Below are positions 24,001 to 25,633 of a DNA stretch of 25,633 nt, piece by piece. Every line of letters starts with the position of its first letter. Position 1 is the first letter of the stretch. The DNA is taken from assembly GCA_042217695.1 (NCBI GenBank), contig JBDGSE010000010.1:1-25633 (forward strand), in the 5' to 3' direction. A program made the position numbers. Source of the DNA: Candidatus Nanohaloarchaea archaeon (lineage in GTDB: Archaea > Nanohalarchaeota > Nanosalinia > Nanosalinales > Nanosalinaceae).

Positions 24001-25633
24001 AGGTCGCGACCCCGATATGGGAGTCGATCTTGAACACTTTCTCCGGGTTCCTTACCTGCAGCTCCGGGGTGGATCGAGTGGCCGCAAGTACGACCCCGTT
24101 CTCGAACACGACTCCGAGAGCTGTAGCGCCTTTTTTAACTGCTTCTTTAGCGTATTCTACCTGGAACAGTCGACCATCAGGAGAGAAAATCGTGATTCCC
24201 CGGTCGTACTGCGCCTGTTGCTGGTTAGTCATCTGCATTTACGAGTCACCTTTAGAAACGTATAACTAAACATATACTTGGAAGATTTATTAACCTGTCC
24301 CGCCTCTTGGACCCGGCCGAATAATAACTTTTAACTCGAAACACTTCGACCCATGGCCACGGACCCGCACACCCACACCACCTACTCTGACGGAGAGTTT
24401 CCAGAGGCGATGGCCTCGGCCGCGGAAGAACACGGGCTGGACGGCATAGGTTTCGCGGACCACCTGCTGCCCGGGCTTGACGAAAGAAGGCAACACTACG
24501 GCATGAACATGGATATCCCCGAGGTACGGGAAAGACGGTCGGAAGCCATCGAGAAGATGAGGGACGAGTACAGTATACAGATATGGGACGCCGCCGAGAT
24601 AGACTACCTTCCGGGGATAGAGCTCGAGGAAACTCTGCGGAACACGGACTTCGACTACGTTCTTGGGAGCGTCCACTACCTCGACGGAGACCACGTGCTC
24701 GCGGAAAGACATTTCTCAGGCCTCGATAAGGGACAGCGGGAACAGAAAGTAGACCAGTACTTTGACTCGCTGGTGGACATGGTGGAATCTGAGCTGTTCG
24801 ATGTAGCCGCACATCCCGATGCGATCGAGAACAACCAGTACCTCGAACCGCTGGTCACTGAAGAACACTACGACCGGCTCTTCCAGGCCTTCCGTCGCTC
24901 GGACACTTTACCAGAGATAAACGCCGCGAAGGCCCTGGAACCCGAGACCTCGTTCTACAGAAGGTGGAGGGACGAGGACCTAGAGTTCTCCTTTGGAACT
25001 GACGCGCACTCCCCGTCAGAACTGGAGGAGAGAAACAGGCTGCGGGAGGGCCTGGAATCAGAACCCGTTCCAGTAGAGGAATTCACGGGTTAAAGAAAGC
25101 CTTTTTTAGTTTGCCCATTCACCTATTCAACGTTAACCCACTGAAGTCCATGCAGTTCGCATGGTCTGTGATGATCGAACTTTCAGAAGTTCGGACCACT
25201 AGCTCAGGGGTTAGAGCACCGTCCTTATAAGGACCCCACGCTGAAATCACTGCCGAAAGGCCAGCGTGGTGGCCTCCAAAAGCGCCAGCTTGCTGGCTCC
25301 GGTCGTAGACCGGAAGATCTGCAAACTGGATCGCCAGTTTTGAGAGAGGCGGCGGTCCCGGGTTCGAATCCCGGGTGGTCCATCCCTGCGGGATGAAAAA
25401 CCGGTTTCGAACATAGAAAAATTGTTTTCGCATTCGGATCCCGGGTGGTCCAACTCATTAACCGTTCGTTGGACTCCCATCCACTAAACCACGGGTTTCT
25501 GGAAGGGGTCCGACCGTGGAAGGGGTCGCTGGCCTAGTTCCAGAGGATTTTCAGGGCTTTTCCACGGTAAATAGTAGTTTTTTTATTCGGCGGAGAGACT
25601 GTAGGTTTATGGAGTATCTGTTGATACTGATGG

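Follow-up and report, generated by a model that had tools for sequence, protein, structure and literature searches.

The window analyzed here, a stretch of 25,633 nt from the genome of a Candidatus Nanohaloarchaea archaeon (referred to as G000, 83% complete), contains at positions 25193 to 25382 of the forward strand a tRNA gene with the genomic anticodon UAU that is interrupted by an intron. RF00005 matches this region end to end (model positions 1 to 71), scoring 46.8 bits where the gathering threshold is 29, and the alignment places a 118-nt insertion behind CUUAUA. When run with introns, ARAGORN reports a tRNA-Ile(tat) with identical coordinates, and when exons 1 and 2 are joined without positions 25230 to 25346, the program folds the resulting 73 nt into an ordinary tRNA-Ile(tat) that lacks an extra arm. 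The genome-wide survey's note had described a UAU tRNA with an intron of about 117 nt at this locus, which the RF00005 match and the fold of the spliced 73-nt sequence confirm; its warning that the intron borders drawn by ARAGORN are off was equally justified, as the reported borders (39,98) are wrong. With introns off, which is the default, ARAGORN returns a spurious tRNA-Leu(gag) at positions 25306 to 25385, and when the whole window was scanned against Rfam at gathering thresholds, with the filters left at their defaults, nothing was matched, this gene included. Annotators will find the gene overlooked or mislabelled by standard tRNA finders.

Structure of the gene and its intron

Exon 1 (25193 to 25229, forward strand, tRNA positions 1 to 37), as placed by the RF00005 alignment and by ARAGORN on the spliced sequence, comprises the 5' strands of the acceptor stem (GGACCAC) and of the anticodon stem (CCGUC), the D arm, and the loop residues C32, U33, U34, A35, U36, and A37. 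By the same two means, the anticodon UAU (positions 34 to 36) lies at 25226 to 25228 and exon 2 (tRNA positions 38 to 73) at 25347 to 25382, both on the forward strand. Exon 2 contributes A38, the 3' strands of the anticodon stem (GGCGG) and of the acceptor stem, the variable loop, the T arm, and a discriminator A; the CCA end is not genomically encoded. The loop context, CUUAUAA, does not vary among the 47 distinct orthologues.

The 117-nt intron (25230 to 25346, forward strand) is located at the canonical 37/38 site, with its borders being set by the cloverleaf and by the bulge-helix-bulge geometry in the sequence. As read from the sequence, the precursor would form a canonical archaeal bulge-helix-bulge with a 4-bp helix, two 3-nt bulges, and an outer helix. 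The 3' strand of the central helix, UGAG at 25341 to 25344 on the forward strand, is predicted to pair with the exon residues C32 U33 U34 A35 (C32-G, U33-A, U34-G, and A35-U), and the forward-strand bulges are U36 A37 A (25228 to 25230) and A G A38 (25345 to 25347). All four central pairs are present in 34 of the 47 orthologues and three of the four in the other 13. Intron bases 2 to 5, GGAC (25231 to 25234, forward strand), have UUUG at 25337 to 25340 as their partner in the outer helix h' (GGAC/GUUU, including two G-U pairs). The same four bases are the exact complement of the exon bases G29 to C32 (25221 to 25224), which makes possible an alternative structure, here called hairpin A, and predicted fold energies make the bulge-helix-bulge fold a median of 5.2 kcal/mol less stable than the hairpin-A fold. 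Bases 2 to 5 read GGAC in 46/47 orthologues and GGAU in one; the A is invariant, though it is mismatched in the outer helix of most orthologues, with h' having all four pairs in only 13 of the 47.

Behind GGAC lies a second structure, hairpin B (25236 to 25269, forward strand). Its stem, CCACGCUG/CAGCGUGG, carries an A-rich bulge on the 5' side (AAAUCACU) and encloses an inner hairpin, GCC-GAAA-GGC. In 46/47 orthologues, 6 bp or more form a stem at this position, and in an alignment of 22 sequences, 98.7% of the cells are paired and five of the seven pairs show compensatory changes. The rest of the intron (25270 to 25340, forward strand) is variable, and its extra hairpins (GCGCCAGC..GCUGGC, CCGGUC..GACCGG, and ACUGG..CCAGU) are missing from short-intron orthologues, as judged by a comparison of lengths (45 to 146 nt). 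A loose descriptor scan for more copies of the intron hairpin was not informative, as it yielded 50 and 89 hairpins of a generic kind.

Two candidate functions for the intron as a guide RNA were considered and rejected. A box C/D guide was rejected: TGATGA (box C) is present in none of the 47 UAU introns and CTGA (box D) in 13 of them, and an Rfam E-value scan of the region matched no family to the intron, C/D families included. An H/ACA guide was dismissed by eye, as a two-sided pocket and an ACA behind the hairpin are both missing. In a regular-expression search, the tRNA-Trp and tRNA-Met introns of the phylum matched box C/D motifs only partly.

AUA codons, TiaS, and CAU tRNAs in Nanohaloarchaeota

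Of 70 genomes of the phylum Nanohaloarchaeota, 54 contain the exon-1 pattern of the UAU tRNA, among them 26 of the 28 high-quality ones, and the pattern occurs in three of five families. The 16 genomes with no match include two with a completeness of 90% or more (G028 of family f5 and G026 of family f3), and looser UAU patterns, run on five of the unmatched genomes with these two among them, did not recover a normal copy. In 32 of 41 loci, the gene is syntenic with that for proteasome alpha. The placement of G000 in the Nanohaloarchaeota is supported by 39 of these 41 proteasome-alpha loci, which have Nanohaloarchaea-type names or come from uncultured archaeal metagenome-assembled genomes, with identities of 59 to 81%, and by the names of its aCPSF1 relatives. 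Across three families, the anticodon stem, loop, and T arm are nearly unchanged and the cloverleaf is intact.

Archaea as a rule read AUA with a CAU tRNA-Ile2 whose C34 is turned into agmatidine by TiaS. The absence of TiaS, claimed earlier for five genomes, is borne out on a larger scale among the genomes searched by profile: PF08489 was matched in 0/41 relatives and in only 1/70 genomes of the phylum, 28 of which are at least 90% complete. The sole match was rejected as a TiaS, as it is a 189-amino-acid, FLD-only protein scoring 23 bits on a 2,083-nt contig, with no TCKD, OB fold, or Zn ribbon. Searches with NF040849 gave only matches of at most 21 bits, confined to model positions 239 to 410, in 25 of the 70 genomes, and the N-terminal 238 model positions were unmatched in all 70. 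The curated cutoff of 600 bits for this model is uninformative, since the four archaeal control genomes with matches also score below it. In the TiaS searches, the positive control, a genome of the Nitrososphaerota (G044), scored 132.9 bits.

The G000 assembly has only 24 tRNA genes, with no tRNA-Met and no IleRS, and the CAU complement was judged from relatives. The complete genome G041 (915,886 nt) has 42 tRNA genes, of which two are CAU, one is GAU, and one is UAU; the CAU genes are those of the initiator (starting with AGCGGGG) and the elongator tRNA-Met, and no additional tRNA-like T arm was found in this genome. An elongator-type CAU pattern has exactly one match in each of 47 of the 70 genomes and never two. 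The check for a CAU tRNA-Ile2 came out negative in these relatives, and from these sequence comparisons, the phylum has probably lost, or never had, both TiaS and this tRNA. It is very improbable that an enzyme unrelated to TiaS modifies C34 of a CAU tRNA, which would then read AUA and leave the UAU tRNA redundant or a pseudogene. Such a scheme can appeal to the fact that a missing enzyme family leaves room for an analogue, but it has no direct support, both CAU tRNAs of G041 are needed for Met, no genome among the 70 has more than one elongator-type CAU gene, and the near invariance of the UAU tRNA, with its intact cloverleaf, speaks against a pseudogene.

ATA accounts for 4,912 of 9,166 Ile codons (53.6%) in 439 long open reading frames of G000, where GC3 is 0.70, in agreement with the share of 53% given earlier. 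At least 120 aCPSF1 homologues were recovered, all at least 71% identical and the named ones assigned to Nanohaloarchaea, Nanosalina, or Nanohalobium; with no distant homologues among them for an outgroup test of ATA, this was replaced by a codon comparison between G000 and G041. Over 328 orthologue pairs, ATA positions of G000 are aligned with ATC/ATT in 43.5%, ATA in 24%, and ATG in 2.6% of cases, and ATC positions have the same profile, with ATG at 2.0%. ATA is thus behaving as an Ile codon. The first 5 bp of the acceptor stem (GGACC/GGUCC) and A73 are common to tRNA-Ile(UAU) and tRNA-Ile(GAU), and in its D and T arms, the UAU tRNA is similar to elongator tRNA-Met, with 74% identity overall. 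A reassignment of AUA, for instance to Met as in mitochondria, with the UAU tRNA being no Ile acceptor, could draw on this resemblance and on an ATA frequency that is unusually high for the GC3, but it is refuted at the level of codon alignment, disagrees with the Ile-like acceptor stem and discriminator, and has next to no probability. IleRS is present in all three complete relatives (842 to 876 bits), whereas the G000 bin has only paralogue-level matches of 265 and 188 bits, as expected from the earlier statement that the enzyme is absent from this bin.

Taken together, these data make it highly likely that AUA is decoded independently of TiaS by a U34 tRNA throughout the phylum, with tRNA-Ile(UAU), once spliced and charged, being the only AUA-reading tRNA. 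The proposal that AUA is read by a U34 tRNA, with neither TiaS nor a third CAU tRNA, is therefore supported and is extended here from five genomes to the phylum. In the pathway that we envisage, the precursor would fold as a bulge-helix-bulge around the 37/38 site, the intron would be excised by the single alpha-type splicing endonuclease (EndA, with one catalytic subunit of about 181 to 185 amino acids per nanohaloarchaeal genome), and ligation would yield a 73-nt tRNA to be charged by IleRS. AUA, the commonest Ile codon here, would then be read by U34-A pairing, because the TiaS and CAU tRNA-Ile2 system is missing. AUG would have to be avoided, be it by modification of U34 or U36, by competition from tRNA-Met, or by an unmodified U34 on an adapted ribosome, as in Mycoplasma mobile.

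Conservation and possible role of the intron

None of the 47 distinct orthologous genes, which come from three families, lacks the UAU intron, whose length ranges from 45 to 146 nt. Other tRNA introns of the phylum are lost more readily: that of tRNA-Arg(CCU) is missing in 8 of 30 loci, and at least nine isoacceptors have an intron in G000 and none in G041. Introns are common, with 15 of the 24 tRNA genes of G000 being intron bearing according to ARAGORN with introns, and they are modular, with hairpin units common to different tRNAs.

We give a little better than an even chance to the reading that the intron does not take part in decoding. It would then be an old insertion that is hard to lose, and its hairpin B and GGAC would only present the bulge-helix-bulge to a strict alpha4-type endonuclease or guide folding. 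The abundance and modularity of introns in the phylum are consistent with this reading, as are the growth of the variable part of the UAU intron by hairpin insertion and the single alpha-type EndA gene per genome, the alpha4 type being reported to demand the canonical motif strictly (PMC5829648). It accounts less well for the fact that precise intron loss, frequent elsewhere among the tRNA genes of these genomes, is never seen among the 47 UAU copies, for the invariant A of GGAC in spite of the incomplete outer helix, and for the predicted energy disadvantage of the bulge-helix-bulge, which would be odd if splicing were the sole constraint.

Judging from its conservation, the intron is possibly functional. 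It is conceivable, although we consider it unlikely, that, in a refined form of the mechanism put forward in the note, the intron is kept because an anticodon modification, at U34 and/or U36, is made, or prevented, only on the precursor, such that AUG is not read. In such a device, either a specific modification would be made or a default Elp3-type modification of U34 would be blocked only before splicing, and GGAC and the hairpin might, as a tentative suggestion, hold a precursor fold that exposes or hides U34 and U36. The retention of the intron in every orthologue in spite of its variable length, the near-invariant GGAC followed by a hairpin with compensatory changes (46/47 for each), and the loss of other introns all argue in this direction, and in the modeled precursor, the intron pairs with U34 and A35 and leaves U36 and A37 in a bulge. 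In addition, Elp3, Pus7/TruD, and Cbf5 are present, so that enzymes for U34 or for anticodon uridines exist, and the further archaeal tRNA-Ile(UAU) genes from the literature that were checked, those of ARMAN-2 and Korarchaeum cryptofilum, are likewise reported to be intron bearing. On the other hand, the Pus1/TruA family (PF01416) was found in 0/4 nanohaloarchaeal genomes, with the control being positive in 13 of 14 reference genomes; the intron, having neither a UGAUGA box nor an Rfam match, is not recognizable as a C/D guide; and splicing or folding alone could explain the conservation of the hairpin. Known intron-dependent modifications are, moreover, reported to be dispensable in yeast and Haloferax (PMC4090602). 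That the intron is a Pus1-independent archaeal equivalent of the intron-dependent system of eukaryotic tRNA-Ile(UAU) is thus a doubtful proposition, and a functional device of this kind would possibly be shared by all archaeal UAU lineages.

Comparison with known systems

How a U34 tRNA reads AUA but not AUG is a long-standing decoding question, and the Nanohaloarchaeota provide a new example of a solution that had been described in a few further archaea of small size; the principle is not new. They had been put forward as the third archaeal clade of this kind after Nanoarchaeum and Korarchaeum, a claim that does not stand, since Fujishima et al. reported in 2011 the same triad of a tRNA-Ile(UAU), no tRNA-Ile(CAU), and no TiaS for ARMAN-2, -4, and -5 (PMC3239211). 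Like the Nanohaloarchaeota, these are DPANN archaea with small genomes (Micrarchaeota/Parvarchaeota). The tRNA-Ile(UAU) of ARMAN-2 is described as having a 25-nt intron at 37/38 with a strict hBHBh' motif and an epsilon2 endonuclease (PMC3239211), in contrast to the introns of 45 to 146 nt with a covarying hairpin and the single alpha-type EndA gene seen here. The part of the ARMAN report drawn on here contains no phylum-wide survey and no analysis of codon usage, both of which are given above for the Nanohaloarchaeota. In Nanoarchaeum equitans and K. cryptofilum, a tRNA-Ile(UAU) is reported in place of tRNA-Ile2(CAU), and in the latter, it bears an intron and is similar to the tRNA-Ile(GAU) of that genome (PMC6000648, PMC8450103). 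These two are single species in surveys of 167 to 217 genomes, whereas the trait spans a phylum here (54/70 genomes), with AUA being the major Ile codon.

Eukaryotic tRNA-Ile(UAU) acquires intron-dependent Psi34 and Psi36 through Pus1 (PMC4090602). It has in common with the nanohaloarchaeal tRNA the UAU anticodon, an obligatory intron that lies beside the anticodon and pairs with it, and the problem of discriminating AUA from AUG; it differs in that Pus1 is the enzyme, whereas the nanohaloarchaeal system combines a lack of Pus1/TruA in the four genomes searched with predicted splicing by the archaeal bulge-helix-bulge route. Contrary to what had been suggested, intron-dependent modification of an archaeal anticodon would not be a novelty in kind, because the tRNA-Trp intron is already known as a box C/D guide for Cm34 and Um39 (PMC4090602). 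That intron is likewise conserved and acts in anticodon-loop modification, but it contains box C/D motifs, while UGAUGA is lacking in all 47 UAU introns and no Rfam family matched the intron analyzed here.

In M. mobile, the C34-modifying enzyme has likewise been lost and AUA is read by a U34 tRNA, with U34 being unmodified and discrimination being attributed to the ribosome and Arg865 of IleRS (PMC3575796); this organism is a bacterium, and its tRNA-Ile(UAU) is without an intron. Haloarchaeal tRNA-Ile mutants with U34 are reported to carry cnm5U34, to bind AUA, AUG, and AUU, and to be poorly charged (PMC3895270). Their cellular milieu is that of the hosts of the Nanohaloarchaeota, and these mutants illustrate the default behavior of a U34 tRNA-Ile in a halophilic archaeon, which the natural nanohaloarchaeal tRNA must avoid.

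The Nanohaloarchaeota thus inhabit the same brines as haloarchaea with no TiaS, with AUA as the commonest Ile codon, and with one highly conserved, intron-bearing gene. They are a third DPANN lineage with this trait besides ARMAN and Nanoarchaeum, which suggests that it may be old within DPANN. Members of the phylum, namely, Nanohaloarchaeum antarcticus and Nanohalobium constans, have reportedly been grown in coculture, and the modification state of the tRNA and the role of the intron are therefore directly testable.

Two minor observations concern the flanks of the gene. The 15 nt that end the tRNA (ATCCCGGGTGGTCCA, 25368 to 25382) recur as a direct repeat on the forward strand at 25438 to 25452, outside the tRNA and 55 nt downstream, and this second copy may be the footprint of a mobile element. 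Directly adjoining the 5' end, a motif of about 45 nt (25148 to 25192, forward strand), identified by eye, consists of a CCATGC-N-GCATGG hairpin followed by TGATGAT and then GAACTTTCAGAAGTTC, and it is common to the tRNA-Leu(GAG) gene on contig C31 and to some introns and flanks.

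The tRNA-Ile(UAU) gene and its host genome

The full-length Rfam tRNA model matches positions 25193-25382(+) of the window with 46.8 bits (gathering score, 29) and aligns with a single 118-nt insertion after CUUAUA, and ARAGORN, when introns are allowed, calls a tRNA-Ile(tat) with the same ends. As read from the sequence, exon 1 (25193-25229, + strand) comprises tRNA positions 1 to 37 and ends in C32 U33 U34 A35 U36 A37, the 117-nt intron occupies 25230-25346(+), and exon 2 (25347-25382, + strand) begins with A38, continues with GGCGG, and carries the discriminator A, with CCA not being encoded. 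The joined exons give a 73-nt RNA, which folds in ARAGORN as a regular tRNA-Ile(tat) with no extra arm, an acceptor stem of 7 bp, and an anticodon stem of 5 bp including one U-G pair. The Rfam score and this cloverleaf bear out the gene with a 117-nt intron described in the genome-wide survey's note, which had also been right to distrust two annotations: the ARAGORN intron placement (39,98) is wrong when compared with the gene model read from the sequence, and the tRNA-Leu(gag) listed for the 3' part, called at 25306-25385 by ARAGORN without introns, is spurious. Scanning all of the window against Rfam at the gathering scores with default settings gives no match at all. The sequence allows the precursor to adopt a canonical bulge-helix-bulge (BHB) motif, with the central helix C32-G, U33-A, U34-G, A35-U, two 3-nt bulges (U36 A37 A and A G A38), and the outer helix GGAC/GUUU.

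The window also encodes Rad50/Mre11, ProRS, proteasome subunits, aCPSF1, exosome subunits, and a HalX-domain response regulator. Loci with relatives of its proteasome alpha (59 to 81% identity) carry titles that include Nanohaloarchaea archaeon, Candidatus Nanosalina, Nanohalobium, and Nanosalinarum, and the named aCPSF1 relatives agree on Nanohaloarchaea. Because both proteins point there, the host genome (G000; 757,484 nt in 44 contigs, 54.7% G+C, 83% complete) is, on protein similarity, a member of the Nanohaloarchaeota, a DPANN phylum of symbionts of haloarchaea with genomes of approximately 1 Mb. One contig with an intron-bearing tRNA-Ile(UAU) and a nanohaloarchaeal-type proteasome alpha (78% identity) is labelled as a Colwellia polaris MAG (L038), which probably reflects a wrong label or a mixed bin.

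AUA decoding and the absence of TiaS

In 439 long open reading frames (ORFs) of G000, 4,912 of 9,166 isoleucine codons are ATA (53.6%, in line with the 53% noted in the survey), 41.6% are ATC, and 4.8% are ATT. The GC3 of these ORFs is 0.70, and A-ending codons make up only 16 to 27% of the Val, Thr, and Gly families. ATA is far above the base-composition level, and ATT (4.8%) is nearly shunned. In G041, a relative with a complete chromosome, ATA accounts for 35.5% of the isoleucine codons. Across 328 orthologue pairs, G000 ATA positions align with G041 ATC (29.4%), ATA (24.0%), ATT (14.1%), and ATG (2.6%); G000 ATC positions have the same profile, with ATG at 2.0%, and 63.4% of G000 ATG positions align with ATG. 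These alignments indicate that the heavily used AUA means isoleucine. tRNA-Ile(UAU) and tRNA-Ile(GAU) have the first five acceptor pairs and A73 in common, and the D and T arms of the former are nearest to those of elongator tRNA-Met. IleRS is missing from the G000 bin, as had been remarked, and is found in three complete relatives.

The claimed absence of TiaS, the agmatidine synthetase acting on C34 of tRNA-Ile2(CAU), also stands for the genomes searched. The TiaS_FLD profile PF08489 matches neither G000 nor any of 41 relatives, and among 70 Nanohaloarchaeota genomes (28 of them at least 90% complete), it matches one, at 23.8 bits. This match is a 189-amino-acid ORF with an FLD-like stretch only, which adjoins an MFS transporter gene on a 2,083-nt contig (L091, G060:C58:1-2083) and has no NCBIfam match; it is either a domain relic or part of a contaminant contig. 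The full-length NCBIfam model NF040849 gives matches of at most 21 bits in 25 of the 70 genomes, confined to model positions 239 to 410, the OB-fold and zinc-ribbon part, and its kinase-like N-terminal part matches nothing in the 70 genomes. The positive control, a Nitrososphaerota MAG (locus L041), scores 132.9 bits for PF08489, and its ORF contains all four TiaS domains.

Since G000 yields only 24 tRNA genes and lacks tRNA-Met, CAU genes were counted on the complete G041 chromosome (915,886 nt, 42 tRNA genes). Two are present, an initiator with A1-U72 and GGG/CCC in the anticodon stem and an elongator with a 70-nt intron, besides one GAU gene and one UAU gene; a scan of G041 for further T arms gave five weak candidates, none of them tRNA-like. 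An elongator-type CAU pattern has exactly one match per genome in 47 of 70 genomes and two in none. By eye, the genes at G041:C1:9254-9360 and 11528-11629(-), labelled Pro(cgg) and Ala(ggc) by ARAGORN, are tRNA-Gln(UUG) and tRNA-Gln(CUG), each with an insertion in the D-loop region that is a noncanonical intron; 376396-376555 resembles Ala(CGC) with G3-U70, and 724633-724786 resembles Thr(CGU).

Of the 70 genomes, 54 contain the exon 1 pattern of tRNA-Ile(UAU) with CCGUC-CUUAUA, as do 26 of the 28 high-quality ones. The counts by family are 40/49, 7/10, 6/8, and 0/1 in each of two single-genome families; in the high-quality genomes G028 and G026, neither this pattern nor looser ones match. Proteasome alpha adjoins the gene in 32 of 41 loci, the other nine being one outgroup, four with hardly any flank, and four others. 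Two contigs of G004 (C43 and C46) carry exon 1 copies differing at position 26 (A or G), which reflects either a duplication or a mixed bin. A single genome of the 70 has a 90-nt class II tRNA whose anticodon loop is CUUAUAA (UAU) and whose variable arm is long; its acceptor and T arm are Ser-like, and its discriminator is G (L152 1493-1582; L152/L153, G039:C30). Of 21 ATA positions in nearby genes, most still align with I (9) or V (4).

The tRNA-Ile(UAU) observation itself is confirmed, and we consider a switch of AUA decoding in the Nanohaloarchaeota well supported. According to published surveys, Nanoarchaeum equitans and Korarchaeum cryptofilum are the archaea with tRNA-Ile(UAU) (PMC6000648, PMC8450103), and the survey's note had proposed a third clade. 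This is contradicted by Fujishima et al. (2011), where ARMAN-2, -4, and -5 are reported to carry tRNA-Ile(UAU) but neither tRNA-Ile(CAU) nor TiaS, and where an ARMAN-2 precursor with a 25-nt intron at 37/38 served as a splicing substrate (PMC3239211). With the Nanohaloarchaeota, one more DPANN lineage joins Nanoarchaeum and ARMAN. For Nanohaloarchaea archaeon SG9, tRNA genes were predicted by Kaneta et al. (2018), who apparently assigned its EndA to an alpha4 group in a supplementary figure; "Ile" does not occur in the main text (PMC5829648). Within open full text, as distinct from subscription journals and bioRxiv supplements, no paper was found that describes this mode of AUA decoding for Nanohaloarchaeota. 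What could be new is an obligatory, structurally conserved intron.

A retained and structured intron

We collected 47 distinct complete precursors (62 in total) from three families; one more locus is cut off. The intron lies at 37/38 in all 47 and is 45 to 146 nt long (median, 59), and the BHB central helix has 4/4 pairs in 34 sequences and 3/4 in 13. Intron bases 2 to 5 are GGAC in 46 of 47; next, likewise in 46 of 47, comes a stem of 6 or more contiguous pairs, with widely varying sequences (for example, CACACAG/CUGUGUG, CACGCUG/CAGCGUG, GCCGCUCC/GGAGCGGC, and CUGUGCC/GGCACAG) and an A/U-rich stretch directly 3' of its 5' strand. Within the window's family, 22 sequences aligned with MAFFT show the stem to be 98.7% paired, with changes on both sides in 5 of the 7 pairs, and its covariation score exceeds all 500 shuffles; slid controls are only 14 to 40% paired. 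Compared with short introns, long ones, the window's included, have extra hairpins inserted 3' of the stem module.

No intron-less tRNA-Ile(UAU) copy occurs among the 47, which is of note because other tRNA introns in the phylum are fluid. Introns interrupt 15 of the 24 tRNA genes of G000, and at least nine isoacceptors have one there and none in G041 (Cys-GCA, Arg-UCU, Lys-CUU, Lys-UUU, Ile-GAU, Gly-GCC, Arg-UCG, Leu-CAA, and Ser-UGA). Of 30 loci of the control tRNA-Arg(CCU), 8 are intron-less and 1 is truncated; the introns of the remaining 21 are very different. The other published archaeal tRNA-Ile(UAU) genes checked, those of ARMAN-2 (PMC3239211) and K. cryptofilum, have introns.

GGAC is the exact complement of exon bases G29-C32, and intron GCCU is complementary to A38-C41. 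Predicted folding favors a three-hairpin form that would sequester both anticodon-stem strands, the BHB-constrained fold being a median of 5.2 kcal/mol less stable by an energy model at 37°C and standard salt that excludes tertiary contacts. In 26 of 47 sequences, the minimum-energy fold includes the hairpin pairing GGAC with exon bases, and the outer helix of GGAC in the splicing-competent fold has 4/4 pairs in only 13 of 47. We regard this predicted alternative fold as a lead, not a result.

The survey's note had proposed that the intron is needed for an anticodon modification that would keep the tRNA from misreading AUG. Elp3 (>620 bits), Pus7/TruD, and Cbf5 are present in G000 and all three complete relatives searched, and each genome has one EndA, of the alpha type; the Pus1/TruA family is found in none of the four, so that a direct analogue of the yeast system is missing. 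The Pus7 target consensus UNΨAR would fit U36 of the mature loop U34 A35 U36 A37 A38. A UGAUGA box is in none of the 47 UAU introns, and no Rfam family matches the intron. A role of the intron in anticodon modification is conceivable but, in our view, unlikely.

Repeats and shared modules at tRNA genes

A 13- to 23-nt direct repeat of the tRNA's own end accompanies 9 of 24 tRNA genes in G000 and 4 of 42 in G041. In the window it lies at 25368-25382 and 25438-25452, and others are on G000 contigs C4, C6, C12, C16, C17, C31, and C34, with a copy of the 5' end 58 to 135 nt upstream or of the 3' end 48 to 118 nt downstream. Inserts on the 3' side of different tRNAs have in common a hairpin, TAGAAGCTCCC..GGCGAGCTTCGGG, preceded by an imperfect inverted repeat of the T-loop and 3' end of the respective tRNA. 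These arrangements may have been left behind by small mobile or integrative elements targeting tRNA genes.

A motif of approximately 45 nt at window positions 25148-25192 (a CCATGC-N-GCATGG hairpin, then TGATGAT, then GAACTTTCAGAAGTTC) borders two tRNA genes directly at their 5' ends, that of the window and tRNA-Leu(GAG) on C31. By eye, it recurs in the Arg-UCU intron on C4 and, as the reverse complement, downstream of Gly-GCC on C16. Together with other hairpin modules common, by eye, to introns of different tRNAs (CTGGTTACGC.CAGT, GAAAACCGG..CCGGTTTTC, and AGAAGACC..GGTC), this recurrence suggests modular, spreading intron sequences.
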